This document shows positions 1,168 through 63,135 of a stretch of DNA of 64,000 nucleotides, piece after piece; the first letter of the stretch is position 1; the number at the start of each line of letters is the position of its first letter. Origin of the DNA: Candidatus Omnitrophota bacterium (GTDB taxonomy: Bacteria > Omnitrophota > Gorgyraeia > Zapsychrales > JAHFFX01). The stretch is taken from positions 6,934 through 70,933 of the forward strand of contig JAHFFY010000007.1 in the NCBI GenBank assembly GCA_023247705.1, in the 5' to 3' direction. Below the pieces are notes generated by a model. That model saw nothing but the letters and a program-made list of their open reading frames with translations, was not told where the DNA came from and ran no database searches. The translations under genes were made by a program, and so were the position numbers.

Positions 1168-3210
1168 CTAAAATTTAATATTCACCCCCAAATCAAAATT
1201 TCTCCCCGGAGCCGGATAAAAACTTTCAGCGCTAGAAAAGGCCGACTTAGTCACCGTAGTCGAATAAAGTTGATTAAACAAATTATTAATCGCACCATAG
1301 ATCTCGTAATTCGGTTTCTTATACGCGATCTTCGCATCGACCGTAAAATAAGGTTCGACTTTCGGGGCCTCATTCGTCAGATCATTAATGGCAAATTGAG
1401 AACCGACATAATTACCGAATAAAGAAAAATTGTATTCATCCCATAACTGCGTTACGATCCCGCTGCTGACCTGCTGGCGGGGGACCAACGGAATTTGTTT
1501 ATCATCATTAACGCCACCGATAAAAAGCGGTTTCTGATAAGTATAATTGGTCGTGATTTTAAACTTCTTCAAGACATTTCCCTTGATGAATTTTGACAAA
1601 TCCGTTTCCTGTCCGATTTCAACGCCCGCACGCCGCGTCTCGTCATAATTGCTGTTCGTGAAGGTCGTCGGATCAAAAAAGATTTCATCATGGATATCCA
1701 TCAAATACGGCGTCACGCTGATCTGCAAGGCATCGTTGATCGAATGCTTTACCCCGACTTCATACTGAATTCCTTTTTGTTGTTCAAGGGTTGTATCCAA
1801 TGTTCCGGTGAACGAACTGTACCACTCATCGGTCGCCAAAAACCGGAAAGTTCTCTGGACGCTCGCATGAAGATTCGAACCTTTGGCGTATTCATACTTG
1901 AGCCCTCCCATATAAACCAGAACATCCGGATCTTGCTTTTCGTCCACGTTGACGCCGTTTCTCTGGCTGAAGGCATAATCCGCCTTATAATACCGGAGGC
2001 CTCCGTTAATAAAAATATCCGTCAGGGCTTCATATTCCGCAAAACCATAAATACCGATATCACTTCGCGAAACCGTCAGGTCGTCGGAATTAAAGCCGCT
2101 GCCAATAATATTATTCTCCGTGTCATAAAAATCCAGCCCGGTCACGAAATTCACCTCTTTATCAAAAACCGTATGATCAAACATATATTTTGCGGTGATG
2201 CCGGTTGTATTGATCGAACGGCTCGTATCGAATCCGCCGAAACTATCGAAAACATCCCGGTCGCGAAAATACAAATCAAGCGCGAGCGACCCCAGATAAA
2301 GATCTTCCGGCCACGGGGCCACATTGAACCCTAACTTTAAATTTTGGTCCCGGCTGTTGGCAAAATCTTCCGGTCTGGTGCTGGCCCGCGGCCCCATCGC
2401 CGATAGATTGGCACCGCTTAAAGCCCCGGGCAAACCATAATCATCTTTATGATACGAAAATTCGACGTCTCCGGTCATTTTCTTCGATACTTCATAAGCC
2501 AGATGAGTGCTGAAATCTTTGGCCAACACATCACTGTTCTGGCGATAACCGTGATCGTCGTCGTAACTGGAATAAAAAAAATAAGAAAGTTGATTCTTCG
2601 ATCCAGACACTTCCAGATCCGTTCCGCGGGCATCAAAACTTCCCCCGTGAAATCCCACCCGGCCGGAAAGATTTCCTTCTCCTTTTTTTGTAATAATATT
2701 AACAACCCCGCCAACCGCCCGATCGCCGTAAAGAACCGATCCGGCCCCGCGGACAATCTCAATGCGTTCAACAGCGCTTAACGGAATTTGCAATAAATCC
2801 GGAGAGGAAATATCGACCGTATTTAAAACACGGTCATTGACCAAGACCAGAACATTCCTTGACGCTGAGTCGCCAAATCCGCGGATATCCAAAACAGAGG
2901 TCTTATTTGTACTGTTGTTGACGACATGGACATTCAAGGCCTCGGTCAAGATGTCCGGAATACTTCGGGCGTTTGATTCTTCAATATCCTCTGAATCGAT
3001 CACCATCACATTCCCCGTGACCCTATAATCATGTTGGGCCATCCGGCTGGCGGTGATCACAATTCTCCCTAATGGGATGGTATCTTCATCGTCCATTTCG
3101 TTGTCTTGGGCAAAGACAATTCCTGAGCCCGTTGTCAAATTTATTATCAGAGAAAAACTCAACAATAAAAAACCTAATAACTCAATAACCTGAATTCTTG
3201 CTCTTTTCAT
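1168..3210 (-). CDS. TonB-dependent outer-membrane receptor (BtuB-like; downstream of a cobalamin-riboswitch-like leader)
   Basis: 680 aa; signal peptide; TonB-box-like DTIPLGRIVITASR; plug domain (IRGFG..., RIEIVRGAGSVLYGDRAVGGVVNIITK); C-terminal aromatic residue (…NIKF) then TAG stop. Confidence 0.85.
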   Translation of the reverse strand: MKRARIQVIELLGFLLLSFSLIINLTTGSGIVFAQDNEMDDEDTIPLGRIVITASRMAQHDYRVTGNVMVIDSEDIEESNARSIPDILTEALNVHVVNNSTNKTSVLDIRGFGDSASRNVLVLVNDRVLNTVDISSPDLLQIPLSAVERIEIVRGAGSVLYGDRAVGGVVNIITKKGEGNLSGRVGFHGGSFDARGTDLEVSGSKNQLSYFFYSSYDDDHGYRQNSDVLAKDFSTHLAYEVSKKMTGDVEFSYHKDDYGLPGALSGANLSAMGPRASTRPEDFANSRDQNLKLGFNVAPWPEDLYLGSLALDLYFRDRDVFDSFGGFDTSRSINTTGITAKYMFDHTVFDKEVNFVTGLDFYDTENNIIGSGFNSDDLTVSRSDIGIYGFAEYEALTDIFINGGLRYYKADYAFSQRNGVNVDEKQDPDVLVYMGGLKYEYAKGSNLHASVQRTFRFLATDEWYSSFTGTLDTTLEQQKGIQYEVGVKHSINDALQISVTPYLMDIHDEIFFDPTTFTNSNYDETRRAGVEIGQETDLSKFIKGNVLKKFKITTNYTYQKPLFIGGVNDDKQIPLVPRQQVSSGIVTQLWDEYNFSLFGNYVGSQFAINDLTNEAPKVEPYFTVDAKIAYKKPNYEIYGAINNLFNQLYSTTVTKSAFSSAESFYPAPGRNFDLGVNIKF

Positions 3211-3612: not shown

Positions 3613-3670
3613 TTCCTTTATTGAATAAAAAACTCAATAAACGGAAGCCAATACAAAGAAATATAGTGTA

Positions 3671-17200: not shown

Positions 17201-18925
17201 AGATGCCGATGGCAACCAGGTCGGCTGAGTGATTCCGGCGAACCTTGGGTCAACCGTGGGCACTGGTGGTTTTCTTACTCTCGACCAATTGCGCACATTA
17301 AATCTAGCCAACAATCTTCGGACGCCGATCGATAACTTTCCGGGCAATTCAGATAGCTTACTTGAAAAAAGCATCGCCTTGTCACCATCAACGGACGTCA
17401 ATTGATCTTTCCCCTCGGGATTCTCAGTCAACTTCTGTACGTCCGATCCGCTGATCGACTCAACCGGGACCGGCCTGTCCCAGGTTGTTCCATCCCAGGG
17501 AAGGACATTGCCATCGTCATCATATTCCATAACCGGCTGGACGGTCTCAAGCGACGCTTCGCTCAAAGATTCCCAGGCCGTCTTGATCTCGGGGGAAGAA
17601 TGGTTCAATTCCTGCGCAAGACGATCGAAATCAACCGCGAACGCCTCGCCTAAATTATGCTGTTCGATCCAATGTTTTAGTTGATCCTCTAATAATTCTT
17701 GAGGAGACTCGCTGATCTGAACTTGCGGGTTCGGAGATTGAAAATCCGTTAAAAGATATTCCATGTTCTCCTGGGTCCAGGGGACAAAACCCTCCGGGAG
17801 TGCGGTTCTCCTCGTCAACAGCGTTTGGATGACCGGGCCGTCGAACCCTCCCGAAAAATATTTCCGCGGAATCGTCTCTTTCATCTGGGTATCAAAATCT
17901 TCTTTGATGTAGTTGTAAACTCCCATCTTGAAGGCGTCGATATACTGCTGGTAAATCTTCTCTTTGACTTGCGGATCGTCGGCATTGACGCCGTTGATCT
18001 TCTTTTGATTGGAATAGACTTTATTCAAAAAATTATTCTGTAACGCCTGCTTGTACCAAACAGCCAGGATCATCGAATTGTAAATCTGGCGCAACTGTGC
18101 GAAATTTTTGTTTTCGTTCACCTCGCGCTCGATCTCGGGAATTAAAATATTTTTGGCGATCTGCGATGATAAATTACTGATTTGCTCGACATCCCCCTCG
18201 TTCTGCTGTTGAGTTCCCAATTGTTCGTTGCTCAAATTTTTCTTACGCGAGAGATAATCTTCCTCCAGCATCACGCTTAAATGACTTTCGATGACGAAGG
18301 CTTTCCCCTTATTTTCATAAACAACGGCTTTATCAGGCACAATCCAAACCTTGTTAAACGTATTCAAGGGAATATTTGTCGTCCCATACAACTCATAGGC
18401 TTTTTGATACACCTGATCCCAGAATCTTTTTCCGAGGCCGGTCTCCGGATAAGTCAATGAAGACATCAATTGTTTCAGGATATAATCCTGGGCCAAAAGA
18501 TCTCGCCCCATCTCCGTTTGACCGAAAGCGTCCGGAACGATCCGGTCTTTTTCATACGGAGATAGATTCACCCAAAGATCATCTTCGGGGATCGCCAAGG
18601 TGGCGAGAAAATATTTTATCAATTTTTCGTATTCCGCTTTTAACTCTTTTTTGGGAGAAGTTGTCTGCCCGCGGTCAACGATGAAATCAAATCTCAGAGG
18701 ATTTTCGGGATGAAGAGCCAGACCTCTTAGAATCGGGGGATTAAAAGCGGTCGTTGGAGCGACCATCGTCCCGGGTTTGGGTAGATCAAGATTGGGCTGA
18801 GCGTAAACAACAGCAGAATAATTGAGGATGGGAAAAAGACTTAATCCGACGAAACACAAAAACAAATAAAGCGTGATCCATCGAACCCAGGGACTTCTTC
18901 TATGCTGGACAAAAGAGATAAACAT
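5264..18925 (-). CDS. giant multidomain protein (4553 aa): N-terminal membrane anchor, GHKL-type ATPase signatures, four tandem ~530-aa super-repeats, C-terminal HExxH module
   Basis: uninterrupted 13,662-nt ORF with TAA stop; N-terminal hydrophobic segment WITLYLFLCFVGLSLFPIL; motif ELTQNSKDA...IADDGTGL...GFFGTGGLT at aa ~3817-3888; EAVSNSFDA and IIDNGTGMN at aa ~693-886; repeated modules FSxDGxYLxY...[ST]GTYT and [FW]DGxYFxLxNPxTG; HELAH at aa 4349-4353. Confidence 0.85.
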   Translation of the reverse strand: MFISFVQHRRSPWVRWITLYLFLCFVGLSLFPILNYSAVVYAQPNLDLPKPGTMVAPTTAFNPPILRGLALHPENPLRFDFIVDRGQTTSPKKELKAEYEKLIKYFLATLAIPEDDLWVNLSPYEKDRIVPDAFGQTEMGRDLLAQDYILKQLMSSLTYPETGLGKRFWDQVYQKAYELYGTTNIPLNTFNKVWIVPDKAVVYENKGKAFVIESHLSVMLEEDYLSRKKNLSNEQLGTQQQNEGDVEQISNLSSQIAKNILIPEIEREVNENKNFAQLRQIYNSMILAVWYKQALQNNFLNKVYSNQKKINGVNADDPQVKEKIYQQYIDAFKMGVYNYIKEDFDTQMKETIPRKYFSGGFDGPVIQTLLTRRTALPEGFVPWTQENMEYLLTDFQSPNPQVQISESPQELLEDQLKHWIEQHNLGEAFAVDFDRLAQELNHSSPEIKTAWESLSEASLETVQPVMEYDDDGNVLPWDGTTWDRPVPVESISGSDVQKLTENPEGKDQLTSVDGDKAMLFSSKLSELPGKLSIGVRRLLARFNVRNWSRVRKPPVPTVDPRFAGITQPTWLPSASDSERIRKGFNAFEYIDPSQNFRGVDLEHFVHAQARLAEGRLAPQILSNLLKNLNLNQNLTTEEAYREIYRALVRGNYQREIIDMINTLPDGRSTYTDPRLDVTIVGQHPNPRAQGINEAVSNSFDAILERLGLSDFKIGQFGMGVKQIIDWLESTGGDRIDIVTRQANSLKGDWYHLTILKDTNGQAYIQIVQLESPQEFEQVLGFPPVSNQGTVVQIKVKTPILRTKAEGEAQFQNSQESMVEDIHRRFAYVWFANITTQIEDEAPVHVNGVEDKRLIVGNPLPVSVERGDIHIAFSAHAVTIIDNGTGMNEQTVSRMFVPKEGDKLAEVLSKEDKIEELNNKVKMVHVPSLPHRVSFARNEEVILAVEIPPSIIDSSTVEGGLMVEFGRLMEVSEKRKDVRIQVDFSKDGALQTFQSAIDHVFTKIIANVSLTDIQKIAYVNTLIVGLEQLGTGNPNYEWVIASSKTKAKEVLSPVIERVEANNGVILPHERKFQKLAVPEGKKVIYLHQDLFDWSGVSSLRRLGGEIIQGVTVGAQKRLPLIVVPFTQESLRGVETFHPDWHTWTEEDRLPIIKTDRFTAIPQRWGKRLQELAAKRIYEGLNDNEKREFAKLTELLNIITGEETTTGYETAAVPKQMEIEEIEEIKRSAGQPDSDAVNEFNSAIVRTPTLAQSKRAMGSVAVPQNANQRHILSQGSIFEIATGKKVPFAGNILALRALRNGYYEIIEDIANINYYKLIRLQEGSKPEEVYYANQFKARLRMSPDEKFVYISRNGDVDEIFNLENGSRFILGANFFEVPAVITQAYKMQFQAPVVPPEIKMSNLQFTADGKYLVYVVKNNKTNEETFVAIDLEKKKPIIQHPILPGEEMELTLSNFGDIVALQVKGDDEIDFFSLAAGKFIPDQARLAFRSDSSGTYTAFRNIASTFVIYFHHNGNMVNASQLNVNLIQSVSTVWSEGDAYYEVRVNKAGTEQILFLDQDGQDVTGVVDPDKLKDKFRETFDGNQLTLFSPGLPGMLPSWNSFDFSNFSPEQNNLIFKQPGLEYFMNLVGPSHPEAIDALSGIKYPFESGNEVVHFFRRESLIFIDGNNNLVRRLNTGDRIEQGKVVAKGKSDPTRSLNGLVVVLDSNSNYVFYNFEKDIPIETILASVSSTEFTNVFWDGQYFVFVNPASKEVVYVSPDDPEHPIRPGQSQAAQSQPTATVFAPTNASLKHVVVNGVLKPVGSTAEILSGVTEFEHLGGNSYLLTRSIKNTAEAKAESPLTPDEDSQNILQEVVHLEGTNIVVLLSTSNAQGKIMSSPNKKYAFIEERTAGLTDSIVNVETGARFLLKNNFMDITGFLPEDVLPNFTADIQNTKNRDLRFSHDGRYLMYREISASNELSFVIVDLESPDPRKIVRKLPQGITDSVNIEYDMNPFANVAFVYFHQNQTMSLVDLTDGAIFTGDFLNGSVIESKLFNNNTTAYQYLHTDSTGTYTAMIKHNGEMEVYVHHGFEIIDSTKVGGKISIVDTSYAGGQQYFTIWTETGNPVRFDQDGQLYQYQPINTDYYYERVDTQGILKGVRVVNNLGQTSPVSVENIFEVNLADLDLLQVAKNIYHHPRYDLVVDTRDLSQPVAIDPMTKNSYKFKGDITYFDQASQKFASYQEGRFSRQEYSGTTSFPQLYIDMRGILDSSKRYLLDTSFGLSLSLSDVSNYSSSNIPTTLSQLEKGSYKPVSFDGKYFVLLNPATGDVIYLDPQDSQNPVRVPADGIAPAPGLVFTPPSTVTAVPGDAKQKYILINHQLIEAGTGKVVFKNAESAELLSNGFYKITTQDEIYISYPERSWNPLFIDKNDGDIAISPDKRFAYIVRKDANVAALIDLQTMVKYELNSFAKVADLNVSPNAITPLSDDWAYRSHGLRFSQSGKYLMYRQLTQGIDYNLVIVDFQKGDVVKKIPYDANSDLFSAAESINPFADVAFIQLKPGNMALLDLSTGEMYDGYKYLRTDSTGTYTVMVRNNDEIEIFFHKSKEVKKRADYGVRIAEISTIYKGDEVYFRLTSDSGDLYELDQDGNLTPWQKSLTGIHLEYYTAFGITLGGINGQVGADPNQQIFPPLFLDFVNASPLQHLNQRGIYFDRTLGLIIDHRYPNNSNAIDPVNGYAFTVSVSDEIAGYNANPGLIVFRTPKGEVVQQGWFNGHPTVATIIQGAIDAVPATYRVIHDTSVGTYNFQSLAQLNDIKMIPGVSPDIYTQILFDGTYFLLINPQTGDLYYVNPSAPENPIFVKAGSGATQIFPTMQLTLDDVKPNDAPYRWTIEWDDQGIPALKDNQGNLTARHPDIVNYVRLNSDTFLAYDQNGQVIEIIRMADPVLARYDLKSLNQTLLTYNDHLAVLTDGVHQFVVDLLTLKRINAIDSDANRYPNLKAGEPNSQEIHLSPSGRFTVHRTETGQLVYYDHDDPHPTPKIILTDLINKEYTVLDNADVVVIKTNAGYSLLNLFTKDYVGWGDTKHVEVDSSGTILVGKVETPSSGNLVPSLYVVNLKDNQQANIFVNLNEVRISSDQKYIYVMVASGLIHSFDRKTGKALPSLPVAPEDLPRYWENYDTQQKTIWDRTSQGVPATWPAGMRDSLKYDDETPFNKGRDSIRLSGTDVMVFNRFDSGNGRSLMSGAGIYDLKTGNDFMGSTLLESIPEHSAVSSLKGGNVRYFNSKEGISKVKVGNQAFDFDPHLTFVNQSKTYLLGQQIFTIQGTGGGPIKGFWMLIDSAEKQYPLLGGIPAGFAVVDVNGDYFVLHNADTGETKYFDPKTIVNAKVTQGIPAQQDAGTRVKWNQEVVTRREAWVKRVQSIYQPILELINSGYGEYNARGEINRRLAPLFDELYRAQLREVRARFERAVREGKDFDATASLPFDRFAGRMARLKIFLDGFLNNTTIRDFIRKEEYSYQRDFYVNLFSGLFELAVHWDLSFETVMEKLVKDSELGEEVLYRYLFELLGYGFKVGSQEQLSLIPKFGELIDRLNQITNKQMKLVDLKKILDFLFFVADKGPQNIETMNKQLDKILRARPQTMERFLAKWLTSFASVELADLTDFINHPDSTRALGDARSFASFLTSDGDQVREESSEEKAMFLPEGEDVDLERGGTSLARIAEEEERRPKDDQYGNIVKKSFSKIGVEDVDGLWQDLVARGYIDETQSKVIKKLEKESDVVLQYRFMPYQSAVYRVLQEARKIVMDVDYFIEHRHQLPGAPQNAQMDLVRDSKVQRESGAYTAELTQNSKDARASKLEISYYLRTNQETGKREFVEEIADDGTGLLQEFAMWVARKSTKEFGAQQGTTGFFGTGGLTTFEGVDRLELINNNGIRRYMFVVDVIKDENGNFIDFKLVRMRKITNPNIREGVTVRRVKAEENTIPELDQMLSQRTWKIFTGLAQTDDFKIYFVNYTDNVRRLRQLNVDSKVVSEIDFTIPRFGDAQMTTFGQFRLIATKDMPLQVVDRVGLRVSEIPEPYLKLVPPGLRRHIKELGLNLQIPLPMIRGRSDFEHGDTYYLPYVQKYVAIELFKLIAQKTLSETDPQFTFLNFPTEWRSNDHYWKSIDFNDAPVVRLAQRINDGQYNEITPQELLNLISSQPGLDYEKKVLKLILMLKAPVQGKTTSLLLERIAIQEELDRNRQGRDLARRNIEMLEDIGLRVNRADIPDVRTIAGYQEILRQASGIETGHEQMKNPAAYLVNPDEYTNLEKELIASALQPGKLVGIERVLLTDNRVFFEGAFSTYENRKTMFLRRGLASHIGRSDPRLSILDEATNTIDHELAHLLEQYMVDFFVSSDLWTTGLPVHLSNFTHDRVGTFAESMKYMAAIWLTNSSDWEEEAYQGADRALLKSSDDLNERFLTNLEMQLPLANVAGRMPVHAISQAAKSIGLDHRPDQRGSIMDMAGQNKRSPPGGIDLNPAHFNLQVQGQGTDGAAVPNEQNLEIIPINGLTPVILQITPVTDLPFLLGLSQPAREQLSYSAR

Positions 18926-23674: not shown

Positions 23675-24952
23675 ATGAAAGGGCCAATGGAAACCAGGAA
23701 ACCAAACGACCCGTTCGCCGCGCTCAAAATACGGGACATCTGCTATTTTATTGCCTCCATCGCCTCGGCCGGGCTGGCCAACCGCGCGATGGTGGTGGTC
23801 ATCGGCTACCAGATTTATCAAATCACCAAAAGCCCTCTCGCCTTAGGATGGATGGGACTGGTTGAAGCGATTCCGGCGATTTCTTTGTCTCTGTTCGGCG
23901 GTTACGTGGCCGACCATCATGACCGCAGATCAATCCTGCTCATCACCAAAGTTGTTTCGGCGCTGTGCGCGGTCTTTCTGAGCTTTTTATCACTGCATTT
24001 AACTTCGGCGAATATTGTTTGGATTTACGTGACGATCTTCGCGGCCGGACTGGCCAGAGGGTTTTCCGATCCGGCCCATACCGCTTTCGAAGCCCAAGTC
24101 GTTCCCAAAAAATTGACCGTCAATGCCGCGTCCTGGATCGGCAGCACCTGGATCACCTCTTCCATCATCGGACCGGCGCTGGTCGGATTTAGTTATGATC
24201 TTCTTGGAGTGCCGAAAACATATTTGATCCTCGCGTTATTTTTTCTTTTATCGTGGATCAGCATCTTCCGGATTGCTAAAAAACCTTTTGTGAAACCGGC
24301 GCCAAAAGAGCCCCTCTTTAAAAGCATCGAGATTGGATTACGTTTTGTCTTCAAAGAACAGGCCTTGATCGGTTCGATGAGCCTGGATTTGTTCGCCGTC
24401 TTCTTTGGAGGCGCGATCGCGCTGCTTCCTATTTTTGCGACGGATATTCTTCACGTGGGGCCGCGTGGGTTCGGATTATTAAACGCGGCCCCTTCGCTGG
24501 GCGCACTCCTGATCATGCTATGGTCGACTCGCCATCCGCCCATCCGCAATGCCGGAGCGAATCTTTTGTTCTGCGTTACCGGATTTGGAATAAGCATGAT
24601 CGTTTTTGCATCTTCCAAAAATTTTATTTTATCTCTACTGGCCTTAATCTTCAGCGGGATATTCGATGGGATCAGCATGGTGATCCGCCGCTCCATCGTC
24701 CGGCTTCTTTCTCCGGAACATCTTCGCGGCCGGGTGGCATCGGTGAGCTGGATCTTTATCGGGGCTTCGAATGAATTGGGCGCGTTTGAAAGCGGAATCG
24801 CCGCCCATTGGCTGGGAACAATACCGGCGGTGTGGCTCGGAGGAATGGTGACATTGTTCGTTGTTTCAATAACCTATATCTTTGCGCCCAAATTACGCTC
24901 TTTACATTTAGATCCGCAAGAAATTGGTCCCAATAAAAATAATCTTTATTGA
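23675..24952 (+). CDS. MFS transporter (putative efflux pump, TetR-controlled)
   Basis: 425 aa, about 12 TM segments, MFS motif GGYVADHHDRRSIL; TGA stop. Confidence 0.85.
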   Translation: MKGPMETRKPNDPFAALKIRDICYFIASIASAGLANRAMVVVIGYQIYQITKSPLALGWMGLVEAIPAISLSLFGGYVADHHDRRSILLITKVVSALCAVFLSFLSLHLTSANIVWIYVTIFAAGLARGFSDPAHTAFEAQVVPKKLTVNAASWIGSTWITSSIIGPALVGFSYDLLGVPKTYLILALFFLLSWISIFRIAKKPFVKPAPKEPLFKSIEIGLRFVFKEQALIGSMSLDLFAVFFGGAIALLPIFATDILHVGPRGFGLLNAAPSLGALLIMLWSTRHPPIRNAGANLLFCVTGFGISMIVFASSKNFILSLLALIFSGIFDGISMVIRRSIVRLLSPEHLRGRVASVSWIFIGASNELGAFESGIAAHWLGTIPAVWLGGMVTLFVVSITYIFAPKLRSLHLDPQEIGPNKNNLY

Positions 24953-25047
24953 GCTTCTTTCTATTAAATTAAACGACACTCTAAATCTCTCGCCAGCGTT
25001 GATGTCGGAAGCGAGAGATTTAGAGTTGGGAAGGAAAAGCTCAATAA
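24946..25047. repeat. ~100-bp nested palindromic intergenic repeat (copy A) between convergent genes
   Basis: TTATTGAGCTT...CTCTAAATCTCTCGCC...GCGAGAGATTTAGAG...AAGCTCAATAA; near-identical to copy C at 53830-53926. Confidence 0.7.
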
Positions 25048-27489: not shown

Positions 27490-30400
27490 TTACTGCGCCC
27501 AGCTTCCTCCCAACGCTTTAATTAACTGGACGGTCGATACGAGACTCCGATTAAGGATCTGAATGGATTGAAGTTCCGCCTGCAGCCGTGATCGTTCGGC
27601 GTCGGCCACCTCGAGAAAATTGACCAATCCCTGACTGTAACGGGATTTGGCCATACCGGCCGATTGTTGCGCGGCATCCACAACCACTTTTTGAATATCC
27701 CATTGCTCCCGTCCCAGCCGAATACGCACCAGCGCATCTTCCACTTCACCGAACGCGACGAGAACACGCTTGCGGTAAGTCGCGACTGCTTTATCGTACT
27801 GGCTCTTGGCCGCCTGCAGGTTCGCTTTATTTTTGCCGCCGTTGAACACAGGCAAAAACACATCCGGTCCCACTGACCACATACGACTCTCCCAATTAAA
27901 CAACGAACTCAACTCCATACTTTCAAACCCCGTTTTTCCCGTCAATGAAATCTTTGGGAAAAAAGCAGCTTGCGCGACACCGATCTGGGCGTTGGCCGCG
28001 GCCATCAGACGTTCCGCTTCGGCGATATCCGGACGGCGTTCCAATAAATTTGAGGTTAATCCGGGAGGAATGATCGGCGGGATGAGATCAAGAGGTTTTG
28101 TTTCGATTTTAAATTCGGCGGCGGACTTTCCGCATAACACGGCCAAGGTGTTTTCAATTTCTGCCCGTTGCCGGGCCACATCGATCTTGGCGGCCTGCAC
28201 TCCGGCTAATTCCGTCTGGGCCCGCGAGACATCCAGTTCGCTGACCAAACCGGCTTTAAAACGGTTTTCGACAACCGATAACGCATCGGTCCGTAAAAGC
28301 ATGCTCTTCTCTAATATCTGCACCTCGGATTCCAATTCCCTTAACATAAAATAATTTCTGGCCACATCCGCGGTCAGGGTTAACGAAACAGTCTGAAAAG
28401 CGGCCTCGCTCGCTTGCGCTTCGGCCAAAGCGGCATCGGAAGACGACTTCACCCGTCCCCAAAGATCCACTTCATAGCTAAGGTCCAACGGAACTTCATA
28501 AGAATTACTTGGGTTCTTCGGGGAAAAATCTCCAAACGTGTTTTGTGATGTCCGTTCCCGGGTGTATTGTGCCGATAAGTTAGCTTCCGGATAAAAGGCC
28601 GATTGATTCAGTTTAGCGACCGCACGGGCCTGATTCAAACTGGCCAGAGCGATCTTTAAATCCTGATTGAAATGCATCGCTTCTTTTTCCAAATCATTTA
28701 AAAGCGGATCATTGAAAACCATCCACCATTCCCCTTGGGCAACATGATCACGCGGGCTGGCCTCTTTCCACGCCGGGTCGGTGGTTTTCCAATCGGCGGG
28801 GATACTGGCCTCGGGAATATGATAACGCGGGGCGCGCATACAACCGCTCAAGAAAACAATCAGGATCATCGCCGCGCCAGCGGTCTTGATCACAGATTGA
28901 TTGAAGTTGGAAAGATTCGTGGGCGGCGCCATTTTATTTTTCCTGGGACTCAAAAGAACATAAACCACCGGAATAACAAAAAGCGTCAAAAAAGTACTGG
29001 TCAACATACCTCCGACGGCAGCGACTCCTAACGGCCGGCGACTTTCTCCACCGGCACCGAAACCGATCGCGATCGGAAGAATCCCAGCGATCGTCGCGGT
29101 GGCGGTCATGAGAATCGGTCGCAATCTGATCAAACCGGCCGCCAGCATCGCCTCGCGCGCCGTTTTTCCCTTGCGGATTTGCTGATTGGCAAAATCGACG
29201 AGTAGGATTCCATTCTTCGTAACAAGTCCGATCAAAAGCAAAAACCCGATCTGGCTGAAAAGGTTAATCCCCATCGCCGGAATTCTCGGAATTTTTCCCG
29301 ACAGCCAATGTCCCGGCGGGATCGTCATTCCCCAATGATCGATCAGACTCACACACCAAAGACCACCGAAGGCGCCAAAGGCCGCGAGAGGAACGGTCAG
29401 CATCACGGTCAAAGGATGGACGAGACTCTCAAACTGAGAGGCCAAAACCATGTAAATCACCAGAACCGCCAGAATCAATACAATGAAAATATCCCTGCCG
29501 GATTCGATCAAGTCCCGGGCCTCCCCGGTCCATTCATAACGGAAATCCGCCGGTAAATCCGTTTTAAGCAGGTTCTGAACTTTCTGGACGGCCACCCCCA
29601 ACGGCACGCCGACCGGAGTCCCTTCGATAATCGCGGAACGAAAACGATTAAAATGCTGAATAGCACTCGGTCCCGCTCCCGTCTCATAAGATACAACATT
29701 ATTTAATTGGATCAACTCTCCATGAACGTTTCGCACATAAAGACGTTCCAGATCCGACGGAGTCAAACGGGATTCCCGCTTAAGCTGGACAATGACATCA
29801 TATTCCTTTCCAGAAAGATTCAGTTTACTCAGATCCAATCCTCCGAAAAGAATCTGCAGCGTGTGAGAAATATCTTCGACAGAAACGCCTAAGGCCGCCG
29901 CGCGATTACGGTCGATCAATATTCTTAACTCCGGTTTATTCAGCTCGAAGGTCGAACGGACATTCGCCAGATATCCTGATGTGCGCAGTTTGCCGCTCAA
30001 TTCATCCGCATAGCGGCTGATCGCATTTAAATCGGTTCCCTGGAGAACAAGCTGAAAAGGCTGGGTGAATCCGCCACCGATCGATTTGGGAATGATCGGG
30101 ATGACGATCGCGCCTTCGATATTTTGAAAAAATTTTGAACCGAACCCAAACGGACCACCGACGATGTCGCGCACATGCCGTTTGCGATCTTCTTTCAAAC
30201 GGATAAATGAAAGCCCCTCGGCCGCCCGGCCCGGTCCGCTGCGGGCTAAAGCGACCGCGGAGAAATATCCTTCCACCTCCGGTGTTTGAGCAATAATCTC
30301 CTCTGCTTTCTTCACCATGCGGTCGGTATATTCGCTGGTGGATCCTTCCGGAGCGACGACAATACAAAACAGACGCCCTTTATCTTCTTCAGGCATGAAT

Positions 30401-32052
30401 TCACGATTTAACCGGGAATAAAAAAAAATCGTCAACCCCAAAACACAAAGACTCAAAAACATGATGACAAACGGATGGTTAAGCGACCACTGCAATCTTC
30501 GTTCATACCAGCGATGCAATGCGTTCAATCCGCGATCAAAGTAATAGACCAAACCTCTCTTCTGTTCATCGTGCGCAACACCGCGCAGAATCCTGGAGGC
30601 CACCATCGGAGCCAGCGACAACGCGACAAACGCCGAGATCAACACCGAGAAAGAGATCGCCACGGCGAATTCGATAAACAACCGTCCGGTCACACTGGTC
30701 TGAAACGCCATCGGAAAAAAAACCGCGACCAGCGCAACCGTAGTCGCAATGACGGCAAAACCGATTTCTTTCATCCCCTGAATCGCCGCCGGCATGGCGG
30801 ACATTCCCTCTTCGATATGCCTGAAAATATTTTCCAACACGATAATGGCGTCATCGACCACCAAACCAATCGCCAGGACAAACGCCAGCATCGTGACAAT
30901 ATTAATAGAGTAACCGAATAAATATAGAACACCGAATGTCGCGATAATTGAGATGGGAATCGTAACTGCTGGGATAAATGTTGACCGGATATTGTGCAAA
31001 AAAATAAAAATTGTCACAACGACGAGAAGAAAAGCAATCGCCAGCGTCCCCCAAACCTCTTTAATGGATTTCTCCACGTAAACGGATTCATCGTAAGGAA
31101 CCGAAGTATTAATGCCGACCGGCAATGTGGGTTTCAGACGTTCCAGTTCTTTCTTGATTCCATGGGCAACATCGATTGTGTTCGCCTTGGATTGTTTGAT
31201 GACCCCGATCCCGACGCAGGGTTTGGAATTATAGCGTGCAATCGAGCGTTCATCCTCAACTCCGACAGCCGCATAACCGACATCGCGCAACCGCACGAAG
31301 GCGGACACCTCTTGTTTAATGACGAGATCATTGTATTCCTCGGGTGTTTTCAATTCACCCAAAGTCTCAATCGAAAGTTCCCGCTGCCAGCTTTCGACCC
31401 GGCCGCTGGGTAATTCCACGTTTTGATTTTTCAAAGCGCTTTCCACATCCATAACCGTGATACCGCGCGCCGCCATTTTTTCCGAATCAAGCCACAACCG
31501 GATGGCAAAACGCTTGGCGCCGCCGAAGATAATGGAACTTACCCCCGGCACGGTTTGCAGTCGGTCCTTCAAGATATTCTCACCGATCGTGGTCAATTCC
31601 AGTGTTGAGAAACGATCGCTGTACAAAGCGATCCATAAGACCGCTTGTGCATCGGCATCCTGTTTCGCAACGATCGGTTCATCGATATTTTCCGGCAACC
31701 TTCCCCGGACACGGGCGACACGGTCGCGGACATCCTGGGCCGCGAGCTCGATACCGCGGGAAAGATCAAACTCCAATGTGATCGTGCTGACCTGTTCCCG
31801 ACTCTCGCTCGTCATGGTTTTGATGCCTTCAATGGAATTCAAGGCCTCCTCGAGGGGTTCAGTCACCTGTGTTTCAATAACTTTAGCGCTGGCACCGGTA
31901 TAAATCGTGGAGACGTTGACAATCGGAGGATCGACGTCGGGTAATTCCCGGACAGGAAGTCGGGACAAACCGACCAGGCCAAACAAAATCAGCCCCAGAC
32001 TCATCATGGTGGCAAGGACAGGACGATTAATGCTAATTTCAGATAAGCGCAT
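27490..32052 (-). CDS. RND efflux permease (AcrB-like, aa 1-1040) read in frame into an outer-membrane factor (NodT/OprM-like lipoprotein, aa 1041-1520)
   Basis: 1520-aa continuous ORF; N-terminal 12-TM RND permease; internal MAPPTNLSNF...AAMILIVFLSGC lipobox signal peptide followed by a 480-aa OMF-like sequence; junction ...SPRKNK-M... sits in an A5 run. Confidence 0.75.
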   Translation of the reverse strand: MRLSEISINRPVLATMMSLGLILFGLVGLSRLPVRELPDVDPPIVNVSTIYTGASAKVIETQVTEPLEEALNSIEGIKTMTSESREQVSTITLEFDLSRGIELAAQDVRDRVARVRGRLPENIDEPIVAKQDADAQAVLWIALYSDRFSTLELTTIGENILKDRLQTVPGVSSIIFGGAKRFAIRLWLDSEKMAARGITVMDVESALKNQNVELPSGRVESWQRELSIETLGELKTPEEYNDLVIKQEVSAFVRLRDVGYAAVGVEDERSIARYNSKPCVGIGVIKQSKANTIDVAHGIKKELERLKPTLPVGINTSVPYDESVYVEKSIKEVWGTLAIAFLLVVVTIFIFLHNIRSTFIPAVTIPISIIATFGVLYLFGYSINIVTMLAFVLAIGLVVDDAIIVLENIFRHIEEGMSAMPAAIQGMKEIGFAVIATTVALVAVFFPMAFQTSVTGRLFIEFAVAISFSVLISAFVALSLAPMVASRILRGVAHDEQKRGLVYYFDRGLNALHRWYERRLQWSLNHPFVIMFLSLCVLGLTIFFYSRLNREFMPEEDKGRLFCIVVAPEGSTSEYTDRMVKKAEEIIAQTPEVEGYFSAVALARSGPGRAAEGLSFIRLKEDRKRHVRDIVGGPFGFGSKFFQNIEGAIVIPIIPKSIGGGFTQPFQLVLQGTDLNAISRYADELSGKLRTSGYLANVRSTFELNKPELRILIDRNRAAALGVSVEDISHTLQILFGGLDLSKLNLSGKEYDVIVQLKRESRLTPSDLERLYVRNVHGELIQLNNVVSYETGAGPSAIQHFNRFRSAIIEGTPVGVPLGVAVQKVQNLLKTDLPADFRYEWTGEARDLIESGRDIFIVLILAVLVIYMVLASQFESLVHPLTVMLTVPLAAFGAFGGLWCVSLIDHWGMTIPPGHWLSGKIPRIPAMGINLFSQIGFLLLIGLVTKNGILLVDFANQQIRKGKTAREAMLAAGLIRLRPILMTATATIAGILPIAIGFGAGGESRRPLGVAAVGGMLTSTFLTLFVIPVVYVLLSPRKNKMAPPTNLSNFNQSVIKTAGAAMILIVFLSGCMRAPRYHIPEASIPADWKTTDPAWKEASPRDHVAQGEWWMVFNDPLLNDLEKEAMHFNQDLKIALASLNQARAVAKLNQSAFYPEANLSAQYTRERTSQNTFGDFSPKNPSNSYEVPLDLSYEVDLWGRVKSSSDAALAEAQASEAAFQTVSLTLTADVARNYFMLRELESEVQILEKSMLLRTDALSVVENRFKAGLVSELDVSRAQTELAGVQAAKIDVARQRAEIENTLAVLCGKSAAEFKIETKPLDLIPPIIPPGLTSNLLERRPDIAEAERLMAAANAQIGVAQAAFFPKISLTGKTGFESMELSSLFNWESRMWSVGPDVFLPVFNGGKNKANLQAAKSQYDKAVATYRKRVLVAFGEVEDALVRIRLGREQWDIQKVVVDAAQQSAGMAKSRYSQGLVNFLEVADAERSRLQAELQSIQILNRSLVSTVQLIKALGGSWAQ

Positions 32053-38877: not shown

Positions 38878-39530
38878 AGGAATGGTTGGGTTGACTAAAC
38901 AACAGCCGATTAATAATGATTAAATTAACAAGAGAAGAATTAAAGAAAGATTAAAAAAGAATTAAAACTTATCGAATTTCTTCTTTAGGACGTCTTATTT
39001 CCTTTTGGCGGTATCAATCGTTTCGGAGAATTAAATAATGAACTCAATGGAAAGTATCTCAAAGGAACAAATCGATCTTGAACTCATTTTAAATTATACT
39101 CCTCATCCTGATTTTTCTGCAATTTTAATTATTCCTTAATCTCTCTTTAATGTGAAAATTTCTATACTATGTTCAAACTCTTTAAAAGAAAGGAACGAAA
39201 TATGACCACGACCGAGGCTGCGATCACCTTGTTGCATCTTTCAGATAAAGATTTAAAAAGAATAGGATTGCCGCAGTTAAAAAATTTTCTGGGAATGCTA
39301 AGATGCGTGACCCGTCAGCTTGAGCGCGAGATAATCCATCGAGAAATTCAAAGACAGGAACATGAATCAATTCTTAAATAACAAAGTGTCTTTGCGAAAA
39401 ACGATCTGAACCCAATTTGTCTTTCCGGTGTTGGAGCTGGGGTAACACTCATTCTAAAAGCAAAAATCCTCTCTCCTTCCATTCCTACCATACCAGCTCC
39501 ACGCCCTCCCCCTGAATCAAAAGAGCCGTC

Positions 39531-39627
39531 TTATTGAGCTTTTCTTTACCAATATTAAATCTCCCCACTCCGTCAAGAACAGTCGGGGGAGATTTAACAT
39601 TCCTTTTGCTAGAGAGAAGCTCAATAA
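39531..39627. repeat. ~100-bp nested palindromic intergenic repeat (copy B, second subfamily)
   Basis: TTATTGAGCTT..TTAAATCTCCCCAC...GGGGGAGATTTAA..AAGCTCAATAA. Confidence 0.7.
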
Positions 39628-39782
39628 TCCAAAAAAATTGCTCAAGCATTTCTTATGATTTGCAGGTTATCCTGTTTTAAAAAAGCCCCGGTTAATCGTA
39701 TGCAACAATCGAGTAACTCGGGGCATCATTCACGGAGAATTCGTGAACGAAAAAATGCGTTTGTCCAACATTTAAAAAATTT

Positions 39783-40979: not shown

Positions 40980-41330
40980 TCACCTCACCACAGCGGTAAT
41001 TTTCTCTAATAAATACGCGACTCCTTTTGACTTGTCAAAATAGTCCAATGCATACGGGATGAGGTGTTTTTGCTGATCAATCGGATAGATGCTGCTGATG
41101 ATAATTCTTAGACTTGGATCATATTCCCTGATCACCTCAAACACGACTTTGCCATCGATCTGCGGCATTTTGATATCCAGCAGGACCAAATCGATGTCTT
41201 CGCGGATCAATATATTTAAGGCCTCGCTGGCGTCTTGTGCCTCTCGCACAAGCATACCTTCCTCCACAAGGGTCCGCACATAAACTCTTCGTACGCGTTC
41301 TTCATCATCAATAACAAGAATTTTTTTCAT
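40980..41330 (-). CDS. single-domain response regulator (CheY-like receiver)
   Basis: KKILVIDDEERVRRV...LLDIKMPQIDG receiver motifs; probable start MKKILVIDD at 41330. Confidence 0.7.
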   Translation of the reverse strand: MKKILVIDDEERVRRVYVRTLVEEGMLVREAQDASEALNILIREDIDLVLLDIKMPQIDGKVVFEVIREYDPSLRIIISSIYPIDQQKHLIPYALDYFDKSKGVAYLLEKITAVVR

Positions 41331-41478
41331 CTCAATTCTCCTAAACCCGAACTCTGGGCGCTCCAACAGAACAGTACTGATTCATGAAACGGGAAAGGAA
41401 AAGATCAATAACTTGGAGGTTATTTTAGTTTTAAGAATATTAATAGAAGATTAAAATAAAATTAGGGTAGAAAAAAAA

Positions 41479-51787: not shown

Positions 51788-51899
51788 AAATGAATTGGAA
51801 GGATGAAATAAAGCTCTAATACTTTTTCATTTTTTTTAAATAGTTGATTTCCTTCAAAGGATAGAGGGATCAATTATTAAAAACGGATTTGACAAAGTA

Positions 51900-53810
51900 T
51901 TAATCTTCATCCCTCGAAGCCTCCAAGTATTCCCACCTTTGATAACCGCGAAAGATCTCGTCTTCCAGGGCCTCCAACCTGGCCTTGGTTTGCGCGACTT
52001 CTTTAGGATCTCTTTGATAGAAGGAAATATCGGAGAGGATGGCGTAAAGCTTTTCTTGTTCCTGCTCGAGCTTTTCAATCTGAGCAGGGAGTTTTTCTAA
52101 TTCCCGCTCTTCTTTAAAAGAAAGTTTGCGCCGGATCGGTTCTTTTAATTCAGGCGTTTGATCCTTTTGGGATTTTGGATTATTTTTTTCTTTCGGTTTG
52201 ATTGGAGAAACGACTGGTTTACGCTGACTCAACCAGTCGTCATATCCGCCGGGATATTCATTGATCACACCTTCGCCTTCCAGGACTATGGTACTCGTAA
52301 CAACGTTATTCAAAAAAGTCCGGTCGTGGCTCACCAAAAGCAGCGTTCCGGAATATTCCAGAAGCAATTCTTCCAGGAGTTCCAGGGTCTCGATATCAAG
52401 ATCGTTAGTCGGTTCGTCCATGACGAGGAGATTAAACGGTTTCGTAAAAAGTCGTGCCAGGAAAAGACGGTTACGTTCTCCGCCGGAAAGAACCTTGACC
52501 GGGGTCCGGGCGCGTTCGGGAGAAAAAAGAAAATCCTGTAAGTAACCGATAATATGCCGGGATTTGCCGTTGATCGTGATGGTGTCGTTTAAACCGCAGA
52601 TATTCTCAATCACCGACTTCTCTTCTTCCAGTTGTTCGCGCAGTTGATCATAATAGGCGATCGTGCAATTTGTTCCCAGTCGTACTTTGCCTTTTTGCGG
52701 CGCAAGTTGTCCTAAAAGGATGCGCAGCAAGGTCGTTTTGCCCGAACCGTTCGGTCCGATCACGCCGATCTTATCCCCGCGCATGACCTGGGTCGAAAAA
52801 TCACGGATCAAACAATGTTCGCCGTAACTGTATCCTAAGGAAGACGCCTTAATCACCAAATGCCCCGACGGCCCGCTCTCCTGGGCCCGCATACGGACTT
52901 GACCGATCATTTGACGCTGGGCCTTTTTTTCTTCGCGCATCCGCTCCAACGCTTTGACGCGGCCTTCATTACGCGCCCGACGGGCTTTGATCCCTTGCCG
53001 GATCCAAATTTCCTCCTGGGCGATTTTCTTTTCGAAATCGGCCCGCTGGGCCGCCTCGTTTTCCAGCGCCATTTGTTTGCGTTCCAGAAATGTTTTATAG
53101 TCGCAGGACCAACTAAAAATTTTTCCGCGGTCCAATTCGATGATCCTGGTCGCTAAATGGGTCATAAACATCCGGTCGTGCGTGACAAAAAAAAGCGTCC
53201 CCGGGAAATCACGCAAGAATGCCTCGAGCCAATCGATGGATTCAATATCGAGATGGTTCGTTGGTTCATCCAGCAACAGAATGTTCGGCTGCAAAATCAA
53301 GGCCCGGCCCAAAAGGCAACGGCGTTTTTGTCCACCGGAGAGTTGTTCAAAATTGGCTTCCGGATCAAGTTTCATCTTGGAAATAAAATACTCAACCTGA
53401 CTATTGATCTCCCAGCCGTTGGTGTGGTCAAGTGCGGATTGAAGACGATCAAGTTCCTGCATCAGTTCCGGGGTGTGTTCCGTGTGCAGGCACTGGCTGA
53501 TATGATGATATTCGCTTAACAATTGAGCGCGGTTGCCTAACCCGGACAAAACGATATCAAAGACGCTACCCTGGATATCCAAAGGAATCTCCTGCGGCAG
53601 ATGCGTTACCTGAATCCCTTTTTGAACAATGATTTCTCCGCCGTCGATTCCTAATTGACCGGTGAGAATTTTCATCAAGGTCGTTTTTCCAACGCCATTG
53701 CGGCCAAGCAAGGCGACCCGTTCGCCGGGTTCCAAATGCAAACTTAAACGATCAAAAATAAGCGGCCCGCCGAAGGCCACCGTAATTTCCTGTAGACTGA
53801 TCAGTGCCAT
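51900..53810 (-). CDS. ABC-F family ATPase (Uup/EttA-like, no TM domains)
   Basis: two ABC cassettes (Walker A GRNGVGKTT and GPNGSGKTT; signatures LSGGQKRR and LSGGERNR) joined by a charged linker; 636 aa. Confidence 0.9.
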   Translation of the reverse strand: MALISLQEITVAFGGPLIFDRLSLHLEPGERVALLGRNGVGKTTLMKILTGQLGIDGGEIIVQKGIQVTHLPQEIPLDIQGSVFDIVLSGLGNRAQLLSEYHHISQCLHTEHTPELMQELDRLQSALDHTNGWEINSQVEYFISKMKLDPEANFEQLSGGQKRRCLLGRALILQPNILLLDEPTNHLDIESIDWLEAFLRDFPGTLFFVTHDRMFMTHLATRIIELDRGKIFSWSCDYKTFLERKQMALENEAAQRADFEKKIAQEEIWIRQGIKARRARNEGRVKALERMREEKKAQRQMIGQVRMRAQESGPSGHLVIKASSLGYSYGEHCLIRDFSTQVMRGDKIGVIGPNGSGKTTLLRILLGQLAPQKGKVRLGTNCTIAYYDQLREQLEEEKSVIENICGLNDTITINGKSRHIIGYLQDFLFSPERARTPVKVLSGGERNRLFLARLFTKPFNLLVMDEPTNDLDIETLELLEELLLEYSGTLLLVSHDRTFLNNVVTSTIVLEGEGVINEYPGGYDDWLSQRKPVVSPIKPKEKNNPKSQKDQTPELKEPIRRKLSFKEERELEKLPAQIEKLEQEQEKLYAILSDISFYQRDPKEVAQTKARLEALEDEIFRGYQRWEYLEASRDED

Positions 53811-53829: not shown

Positions 53830-53926
53830 TTATTGAGCTTCTTTCTACTAAACGAAACTCTAAATCTCTCACCAACGTCGGTATCGCCAGCGAGAGATTT
53901 AGAGTTGGAAAGGAAAAGCTCAATAA
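53830..53926. repeat. ~100-bp nested palindromic intergenic repeat (copy C)
   Basis: near-identical to copy A; lies upstream of the ABC-F gene; ORF 53817..54053 overlapping it is likely spurious. Confidence 0.7.
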
Positions 53927-53985: not shown

Positions 53986-54348
53986 TTACTGGGGAAGAAT
54001 CTCGTTTCTCTCGGGAAATTCATAAACGGTCGCGGCTGATTTTTCTTTTGCACCCTCTGTGTCTGTGGATACCTTCACCGTTTTAGGTTGCTGTGTCACA
54101 GGCGCCAAAGGATCATTGGCCGGATCAATGACCGGGATGCCGGGAGTACTTTCGGGTGTAGATTGAGCGACCGCCCCTGATGGCGACGCGCTATTGTCAT
54201 TCGTCGATTGATCTTTAGCTGCATCAATCTGTTGATTAAGCCAATGATTCATCCCATAGACTAAAGCAAACATGACGATGACGACACCCAACAAAAAATA
54301 ATTCTTTGTATTTCCACGATTATCCATTATCTGTTTCCCTCCTGCCAA
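53986..54348 (-). CDS. membrane-anchored hypothetical protein (pilus-cluster associated)
   Basis: 120 aa with one TM segment and a Pro/Thr-rich periplasmic tail. Confidence 0.35.
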   Translation of the reverse strand: MAGGKQIMDNRGNTKNYFLLGVVIVMFALVYGMNHWLNQQIDAAKDQSTNDNSASPSGAVAQSTPESTPGIPVIDPANDPLAPVTQQPKTVKVSTDTEGAKEKSAATVYEFPERNEILPQ

Positions 54349-61758: not shown

Positions 61759-61855
61759 TTATTGACCTTTTCCTTCCCAATGTTAAATCTCCAACTTTCG
61801 TCAGCGATGGAGGTTGGAGATTTAACATTCTTATTAGTAGAGAGAAGGTCAATAA
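61759..61855. repeat. ~100-bp nested palindromic intergenic repeat (copy D, second subfamily; outer stem GACCTT/AAGGTC)
   Basis: TTATTGACCTT..TTAAATCTCCAAC..GTTGGAGATTTAA..AAGGTCAATAA; abuts the stop of the TPR gene. Confidence 0.7.
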
Positions 61856-63135
61856 TCTCTAAGAAAACCAAACGCTCCCAGCCAGCTGGAGGCGATAAAT
61901 AAAATGAGAGATAATCCCGAAGCCGTTTCCAAGAGGGCCGACATTTCTTTTCCGTAAAAAAAGGACTCAGCCCCCCTGATCATTCCAACGCTTAAAATAA
62001 ATATTCCTATGGCACCGTAAACGATACGGCCGGCTTTATGATCATTGGTAAATGTACTCGAGAATGGGATCGTAGCCATGATCAGGGCAATCCCGATCGT
62101 GGTCATCACCAGGGCTTTGAACGCAATGCCGATCAATATAAAACTGATTCCGGCAAAAAATCCTCCGCCCGTGAAGATCCCATCCAGCTTTTCTGTTTTC
62201 TTCAAACTATACCGAGCAAACGGATCGCAGAGGATCAGCAAATTTCCGATCCCCCGGGAAAGCCATGTCCAGAAAAAGAAACCGTATAAAGCGATCAACC
62301 CTAAATACCCGACCACCGCCCAAGGCCCATTTAAAATGGCTAAAAATCCCTTGAGCGCCGAACGATACGCGATGTAAATTCCCATCAAAATCCAAATCCG
62401 TGCGCCTTTGGTCTGACGAGACATGAATAGTCCATACTCCAAATACAACCGATATAACGGTGATTTCGCTTTAAAGACTTCCAGCATCCCCGATCTGGCC
62501 GGCTCGAAATTGGGATCCAAGCGCAACGCTTCTTTAAAATGGATCTGGGCCTTTCGATAATCTCTCCGGTTTAAATAGACCCATCCGGCGTTGGAATGGG
62601 ACAGACTATTTTCGGGATCTTTGGCCAGAAGGTCAGAGGCCAAATGAACACTTTCATCGAGTTTGTTTTGCATCCGCAAAGCGTTGGCCAAAACGTTTCC
62701 GGCAAAGCGATTATCCGCGTCGAAGGAAAGAGCATCCCGCGCGGATTTTTCAGCATCGTTCCATTTTTCCAGCATAGAAAAAATATAGGCCTTGGCCGCG
62801 TGGGCATCGGGATATTGGGGATTAAGCCTCAACGCCTCATCGACCGTATCCAAAGCTAGTTTATGTTTCTTCAAACCGGAAAGGATCAAAGACTTCAATT
62901 GATAATAGGCCGGTTCCTGATTTTCATGTTTGAGAGCTTCATCGATCGTTTGCAAGGATTGTTTGCGTTGGTCGTCCAAATGATATTGCGCGACCGCAAG
63001 GAAATACAATAAATAATCGTTGGTCGGGGCCTGGGATAATTGGTCTTTAAAAGCCTGGACCGCTTCTTTATAACGGCCCTGGTCGATCAGGATCGTCCCT
63101 CTGCGAAAAGCCGTTTCCTGAAATGGTTCACTCAC
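61849..63135 (-). CDS. TPR-repeat protein with C-terminal multi-TM region
   Basis: 428 aa; tandem TPR-like repeats in the N-terminal half and about 4 TM helices in the C-terminal third; start overlaps the AAA gene stop by 4 nt. Confidence 0.65.
   Translation of the reverse strand: MSEPFQETAFRRGTILIDQGRYKEAVQAFKDQLSQAPTNDYLLYFLAVAQYHLDDQRKQSLQTIDEALKHENQEPAYYQLKSLILSGLKKHKLALDTVDEALRLNPQYPDAHAAKAYIFSMLEKWNDAEKSARDALSFDADNRFAGNVLANALRMQNKLDESVHLASDLLAKDPENSLSHSNAGWVYLNRRDYRKAQIHFKEALRLDPNFEPARSGMLEVFKAKSPLYRLYLEYGLFMSRQTKGARIWILMGIYIAYRSALKGFLAILNGPWAVVGYLGLIALYGFFFWTWLSRGIGNLLILCDPFARYSLKKTEKLDGIFTGGGFFAGISFILIGIAFKALVMTTIGIALIMATIPFSSTFTNDHKAGRIVYGAIGIFILSVGMIRGAESFFYGKEMSALLETASGLSLILFIASSWLGAFGFLRDY

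Follow-up and report, generated by a model that had tools for sequence, protein, structure and literature searches.

Palindromic elements, probably non-autonomous MITEs, inserted at TTAA-like sites in Candidatus Omnitrophota genomes

A stretch of 64,000 nt of a Candidatus Omnitrophota genome (in the following: the window) contains four copies, lettered A to D, of a palindromic element of about 100 nt, which are ordinary members of a larger family. The comparison of filled and empty sites showed that the element is an insertion with fixed termini at TTAA-like sites. [quoted passage not shown] A description of the family was not found in the searchable literature.

Insertion sites and spread of the family

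Five pairs of loci differ in the presence or absence of an element, and in all five cases the filled site contains the whole element where the empty site has 4 nt, which identifies the element as inserted sequence. The net gain is 93 nt, or 96 nt for a 100-nt variant, i.e., a whole number of codons. The tetranucleotide of the empty site is TCAA inside a coding sequence (GTTC[97 nt]CCC in L010 versus GTTC-TCAA-CCC in L053/L054), ATAA, of which the TAA is the stop codon of the upstream gene (L004 versus L050), TTAA with a TAA stop on the other strand (L016 versus L047), again TTAA, nested in a different small palindromic repeat (L151/L174 versus L098/L101/L110), and CTAA for the 100-nt variant (L005/L125 versus L122). 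The target is a TTAA-like tetranucleotide, often the TAA stop codon of a gene, and the flanks have a symmetric bias, being pyrimidine-rich at positions -3/-2 and purine-rich at +2/+3. The termini of the family are conserved (TTATTGASCTTC … GAAAGSTCAATAA), and TTATTGASCTT at the left end and AAGSTCAATAA at the right end form perfectly complementary terminal inverted repeats. Either a TA duplication in T-TA-A or a duplication-free insertion at TT|AA describes the junctions best, and both are exact at the two TTAA sites. We infer, as the leading explanation, a TA-type mechanism. IS630-type elements duplicate a target TA, which is the signature of the IS630/Tc1-mariner group (PMC2170065).

Within the window the covariance model detected the four copies with 84-99 bits (Table 1), and everything else stayed at 15 bits or below. 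The 11-nt outer arm TTATTGAGCTT occurs 11 times when up to one mismatch is allowed, compared to 1.7 expected occurrences; none of 100 shuffled sequences reached this number, and eight of the 11 occurrences make up four arm pairs. The exact inner arm CTCTAAATCTCTC is present in the window only in copies A and C. These two copies had been located correctly, including their arms, in the original prediction; they are 85% identical, or 90% when one 5-nt indel is left aside, and copies B and D are reverse complements relative to them. The similarity of the copies has its exact limits at TTATTGA… and …TCAATAA, with unrelated flanks. Therefore, the copies do not derive from one duplicated locus, and the possibility that A and C exist alone as a flanking duplication is also at odds with copies B and D and about 150 further copies.

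The family had been thought to be specific to this genome, which turned out to be wrong. One genome per species was scanned with the two outer arms, which yielded 52 loci with about 34 true members in at least ten species-level metagenome-assembled genomes (MAGs) of Omnitrophota, and some of the MAGs carrying members are labeled "uncultured Planctomycetales". The remaining loci are chance matches, or palindromes with the same termini and a different interior. Because the outer-arm pattern fixed the ends of the element, metagenomes were scanned with internal motifs only, so that the ends were unconstrained. This led to at least 127 pattern matches in at least 120 loci, many of them on groundwater contigs. 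Among the matches listed are 109 complete copies, which start with TTA in 97 cases, end with TAA in 94 cases, and are exactly 97 nt long in 79 cases. On viral contigs four matches were obtained, all of them one unrelated sequence without the right arm and attributable to chance only. A profile search of all collected sequence revealed 158 copies, of which 146 are full length and 133 are unique; 90 of the unique copies have a length of 97 nt, within a range of 85-115 nt. The identity between copies at unrelated loci is as high as 96-99%, an argument for recent movement.

Two single observations concern individual loci. At one and the same site, with flanks that are 80-84% identical, L028 (4903-4999) and L055 (201-297) carry elements of different subfamilies (GACC versus GAGC type), which implies either an independent insertion at a hot spot or a replacement or conversion. 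In L126 (5787-5931) a copy of 145 nt contains a 48-nt secondary insertion in its right arm, and this insertion is itself partly palindromic.

Hairpin structure and reading frames

On either strand, each window copy can be folded into one long hairpin, in which an outer stem and an inner stem are separated by an asymmetric internal bulge and the center comprises about 20 nt, with folding energies of -37 to -48 kcal/mol and z-scores of -6.9 to -10.5 compared to shuffled sequences. The proposed check of folding and covariation gave a positive result, also beyond the window: in 38 copies the 27 consensus pairs are 98.1% paired, with double changes in 13 pairs, while none of 500 shuffles reached the observed values and slid partners are 35-53% paired. 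The outer helix of ten pairs is 99.7% paired across the 38 copies, and a G/C swap at columns 8/105 preserves complementarity in every case, a feature not demanded by the search pattern. G-U pairs and A-C mismatches occur at similarly low frequencies, and therefore neither strand is favored. Together with the random orientation of the copies described below, this points to a constraint on the level of DNA rather than RNA.

With respect to the asymmetric arms, the central ~21 nt are found in either orientation. The centers of L010 and L009/L043, for instance, are exact reverse complements of each other, and two groups of orthologous loci are not uniform in center orientation (L033 and L024 versus L059 and L060; L005 versus L003). 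All 16 pairs with flanks of at least 99.6% identity have the same center orientation, and therefore the inversion must be slow, which rules out a fast phase-variation switch.

Most of the 133 unique copies are intergenic or unclassified (96, about 72%), but 16 give a TGA stop codon to a neighboring gene, and 21 (about 16%, or about one in seven in real genes) are read through in long open reading frames (ORFs); a few of these 21 are artefacts, e.g., L005 and L028. Four of the six frames contain no stop codon in 62-83% of the copies, compared to 10-13% of shuffled copies, and the remaining frame on each strand stops at the terminal TGA. Element lengths are 1 mod 3 in 74% of the cases, and the coding capacity is at most a read-through peptide of 33 residues. 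The orientation relative to neighboring genes is unbiased (11 versus 8 for the stop-supplying copies at a looser threshold). As a consequence of the four open frames and the terminal TGA, an insertion into a stop codon costs one extra Tyr, and an intragenic insertion adds a loop of 31 residues.

In L010 the element lies within an NfnB/GltD-like gene. Homologues that are 92-94% identical have exactly 31 residues fewer, and alignments with PDB entries place about 32 extra residues in a loop. The AlphaFold model of this insert-bearing protein (P0001; predicted local distance difference test score 85, predicted template modeling score 0.86) keeps the fold, and the insert is predicted to be a low-confidence loop just before a Rossmann strand. 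Further verified read-through hosts include pyruvate:ferredoxin oxidoreductase, GatB, in which the insert separates the two domains, a UvrD-type helicase, ornithine cyclodeaminase and 3-methyladenine glycosylase (Tag), with Pfam domains split exactly at the insert, as well as a sulfatase, MacB, and a MurC-Ddl ORF. An exhaustive search with the peptides encoded by the window elements yielded 35 representative proteins, including a CoaBC-type protein, a histidine kinase, and a LigT phosphoesterase, whereas a 66-column two-frame peptide profile retrieved from a database of 5.8 billion proteins only six weak matches, all to short ORFs.

In L031 (2627-2723) and L141 (2400-2496) MurC and Ddl are encoded by one ORF, and the element is situated at the junction. 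MurC-Ddl fusions are known in Chlamydia. Either the element was placed in the linker of a pre-existing fusion, or it helped to create the fusion.

Interpretation as mobile elements and alternatives

The elements are small, have no coding capacity for a transposase, contain terminal inverted repeats, and form dispersed copies with presence/absence polymorphism, all of which is expected for MITEs. Typical bacterial MITEs have a size of 100-200 bp, long stem-loops, TA at their termini, and form in-frame fusions with ORFs (PMC2229807, PMC10969869). The original prediction of a MITE/REP-like element is supported by the dispersed copies with unrelated flanks, the terminal inverted repeats, the filled and empty sites, and the high identity at unrelated loci. 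A transposase supplied in trans would recognize the terminal inverted repeats, and the insertion would occur by TA duplication in the style of IS630/Tc1-mariner or duplication-free. The complementarity of the hairpin would be kept by processes on the DNA level, i.e., by selection for a match between the two ends, by intrastrand template switching, or by both, and the same processes would account for the in-place inversion of the center.

The comparison with characterized families revealed similarities as well as differences. RPE are palindromes of about 100-150 bp for which no transposase is known; they have short terminal inverted repeats and are found in intergenic regions and, unusually often, in frame in conserved protein genes, where the added peptide is tolerated by the fold (PMC10969869, PMC2229807). 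The Omnitrophota family resembles them in its 21 read-through copies, its verified hosts, and the insert that is modeled as a loop. However, it belongs to the Planctomycetes-Verrucomicrobia-Chlamydiae (PVC) group and not to the Alphaproteobacteria, so that the likeness would be a functional analogy only, and its element is shorter (97 nt), with a length that is sharply fixed, is inserted at a documented TTAA-like target, and is predominantly intergenic. The Correia/NEMIS elements of Neisseria, in their 107-bp form, and the RUP elements of Streptococcus pneumoniae are MITEs of about 100 nt with long stem-loops, TA termini, and TA-containing targets; open frames of the 107-bp Correia form were found fused to genes, and RUP has been linked to an IS630-family transposase (PMC2229807). 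The junctions of the Omnitrophota elements are compatible with a similar TA duplication, but the terminal sequences differ, and an IS630-type parent with matching ends was not found in the window and 1.22 Mb of related loci. In addition, RUP has stops in all six frames, in contrast to the four open frames of the Omnitrophota family.

While Rickettsia is the textbook example of in-frame palindromic elements, the family presented here shows the same behavior and is a second large case, in an uncultured phylum that is unrelated to Rickettsia and has very small cells. Its in-frame copies reside, among others, in the core enzymes pyruvate:ferredoxin oxidoreductase, GatB, UvrD, and MurC-Ddl, and its junctions are clean enough to define a TTAA-like target and an exact gain of codons. 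It has consequences for annotation, because Omnitrophota MAGs will hold spurious short ORFs predicted on intergenic copies, 31-residue "inserts" in enzymes, altered stops, and possibly artificial gene fusions. For assembly and typing, a repeat with about four copies per 64 kb breaks assemblies and yields presence/absence markers for strains. The family is also a tractable case for studying how palindromes stay paired over their whole length and how their centers invert.

Several points weigh against the interpretation as classical MITEs. A related autonomous insertion sequence (IS) or a transposase with these termini was not found in the sequence mentioned above, in which termini that are paired at a distance of 130-6000 nt belong only to neighboring short copies or are chance matches in coding sequence. 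The empty site is exactly TTAA in only two of the five pairs, and with both junction models one additional change has to be assumed for the other three. Where the termini vary, the two ends change together as inverted and not as direct repeats (TGA…TCA three times, TAA…TTA, and TTG…CAA). Direct repeats in the flanks were looked for and are not above chance, and hence a classical target-site duplication is not demonstrated. The fully paired inner stem exceeds what a transposase needs, and a single-stranded hairpin intermediate or another constraint is possible. Lastly, the support for transposition, transcription, and translation is in all cases comparative.

A more far-reaching, rather improbable view is that the family is a translation-adapted mobile cassette, selected for harmlessness in very gene-dense genomes and moved via a hairpin intermediate by an enzyme other than a classical DDE transposase. 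It is based on the gain of exactly 31 codons, the four open frames, the immediate TGA in the other two, and the preference for TTAA and TAA stop codons. A hairpin intermediate and a non-DDE enzyme would explain the paired stem, the palindromic outermost bases, the inversion of the center, and the absence of a parent IS. If this view were true, the element could create or extend linkers in multi-domain proteins such as MurC-Ddl, MacB, and GatB.

An alternative that we regard as unlikely is a REPIN-like nature, i.e., a pair of inverted REP-type sequences that folds into a hairpin of single-stranded DNA and is moved without terminal duplication by a domesticated HUH/Y1 transposase (RAYT or IS200/IS605-like). 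Like REP, BIME, and REPIN sequences, the Omnitrophota palindromes are dispersed, their hairpin, which comprises the whole element, is kept by compensatory changes, and there is no obvious target duplication; the variant termini behaving as inverted repeats and the missing IS parent fit as well, and an inversion of the center would be natural for a hairpin intermediate. However, REPs are extragenic, have shorter units and a conserved 5' tetranucleotide, and are tied to a RAYT gene, and none of this was observed for the Omnitrophota family: many copies are intragenic, a conserved GTAG-type head is absent, and the window contains no Y1 transposase or RAYT gene. Insertion 3' or 5' of a fixed tetranucleotide, in the style of IS200/IS605, was rejected, since it fits only one of the five empty sites.

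The original prediction had also considered a structured small RNA or a bidirectional terminator, and selection by the host for a hairpin that acts in RNA as terminator or attenuator to end or stabilize neighboring transcripts now appears very unlikely. It is true that the hairpins are very stable, that the copies are mostly intergenic and near gene ends, and that MITE hairpins in Neisseria and Yersinia affect mRNA processing (PMC2229807). An inner hairpin with an internal T-rich stretch was flagged at copies C and D, but only at C on the transcribed strand, and no terminator-like site is present at A and B; a hairpin directly followed by a U tract was not observed. Flanks that are pyrimidine-rich upstream and purine-rich downstream are the reverse of a bidirectional terminator. 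Furthermore, the orientation relative to genes is random, copies in coding sequences occur in both orientations, and neither strand is favored. A scan of Rfam 15 with gathering thresholds gave no match at the elements, and a relaxed scan retrieved only generic hairpins with 17-21 bits compared to thresholds of 41-97. The presence/absence polymorphism also speaks for insertion and not for conservation. A secondary effect of the elements on mRNA is possible.

A structure-specific recombination site that is recognized as a folded single strand, either like an integron attC or by another tyrosine or serine recombinase, would agree with the conserved ends, the variable palindromic center, the conservation of structure above sequence, and the length, which is in the attC range, but it is highly improbable, because attC sites require the cores RYYYAAC 5' … GTTRRRY 3' and the element ends TTATTGAGC … GCTCAATAA have the wrong order, and the copies are single, scattered, and in part intragenic, with neither cassette arrays nor an integrase in the window.

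Window copies and further repeats

The four copies are surrounded by ordinary chromosomal genes, which encode an MFS transporter, trehalose-phosphate synthase and phosphatase, an ABC-F protein, two-component systems, a TPR protein, and an RND efflux system. Transposase, recombinase, or integrase domains were not found among the window genes. Copies A and C had been proposed to lie strictly between genes. This is correct for copy C, but the last sense codon and the TGA of the MFS gene both lie inside the left terminus of copy A (TTAT-TGA), and the same is true for the TPR gene and copy D.

Table 1. Coordinates of the element copies and associated features in the window. Scores are from the covariance model.
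Feature	Position	Strand	Description
Copy A	24946..25047	+	102 nt, 5-nt insertion in the left bulge; 83.9 bits
Copy A, outer stem	~24947-24962 / 25029-25046		
Copy A, inner stem	24978-24993 / 25011-25026		
Copy A, central loop	24994-25010		
Copy B	39531..39627	-	97 nt, reverse complement; center inverted ("flop", GACG); 91.7 bits
Copy C	53830..53926	+	97 nt; 99.3 bits
Copy D	61759..61855	-	97 nt, GACC/GGTC subfamily, reverse complement; 96.4 bits
Possible decayed relic	41323..41411	+	Right arm GGAAAGGAAAAGATCAATAA well preserved, left part barely recognizable; 14 bits, E ~1.7, not significant alone
TGA stop of the MFS transporter gene (23675..24952)	24950..24952	+	From the left terminus of copy A (…TAT TGA)
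TGA stop of the TPR gene (61849..63135)	61849..61851	-	From the terminus of copy D

Copy B is situated 155 nt downstream of a DUF3568 gene, in a region of about 900 nt (38878-39782) between this gene and the trehalose-phosphate synthase gene that contains no long ORF, only ORFs of up to 70 aa. Copy C is located between co-directional genes, 59 nt downstream of the ORF 53986..54348 and 19 nt upstream of the start of the ABC-F gene (51900..53810, minus strand), i.e., in its 5' leader. The ABC-F locus recurs in a second assembly with copy C in place, the ABC-F protein has a counterpart with 100% identity in the database, and its named close homologues are all from Candidatus Omnitrophica/Omnitrophota. 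ABC-F orthologues with 76-80% identity are not syntenic upstream and did not provide an empty site for copy C, and empty sites were obtained for none of the copies A-D. The possible relic lies between the genes for a response regulator and a histidine kinase, in the leader of the former. A match of TTATTGATCTT at 35761 was rejected as an element arm and is attributed to chance, because it is located within a real GH15 gene.

A mini-palindrome of 23 nt at 3618-3640 consists of two 7-nt termini only (TTATTGA-ATAAAAAAC-TCAATAA; E ~2, not significant). It adjoins the 5' end of a cobalamin riboswitch (Rfam RF00174, 44.6 bits; 3321-3627, minus strand), which is located upstream of a gene for a TonB-dependent receptor (1168..3210). 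A motif of abutted ends that resembles this mini-palindrome, TTATTGAC-TGTAAAG-GTCAATAA, was found inside elements of Wallbacteria.

Palindromes of 96-109 nt that have the terminal TTATTGASCTT in common and differ in their interiors were found at L001/L030/L034/L046, L048, L041/L052, L006/L038, and L044. Their hosts are other Omnitrophota, Wallbacteria, and one Phycisphaeraceae MAG, and several are exactly 97 nt long. They may represent a wider superfamily that is served by related enzymes.

Two further palindromic repeats were observed. A second, unrelated nested-palindrome family of about 80 nt, with the outer arms TACTTTGTCA/TGACAAAGTA and the inner arms ATAGTTGAT/ATCAACTAT, is present in the window (51820-51899), in L021 (691-772), and in L069 (4084-4160); the window copy, which has the convergent genes HTH_3 and ABC-F on its two sides, is 82% identical to a copy in another Omnitrophota MAG. 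A third repeat of about 68 nt (TTAAACCCAAGAATTTCAG…CTGAAATTCGGGTTTAA) occurs in L098 (~1030-1100), L101 (~8070-8140), and L110 (~10665-10735), and in L151/L174 it is interrupted at its central TTAA by the 97-nt element, which represents a nested insertion.

The window also contains an ORF of 1520 aa that joins an AcrB-type transporter and an outer-membrane efflux protein (OEP) domain, and a giant ORF of 4553 aa (27490-32052 and 5264-18925, respectively; minus strand).

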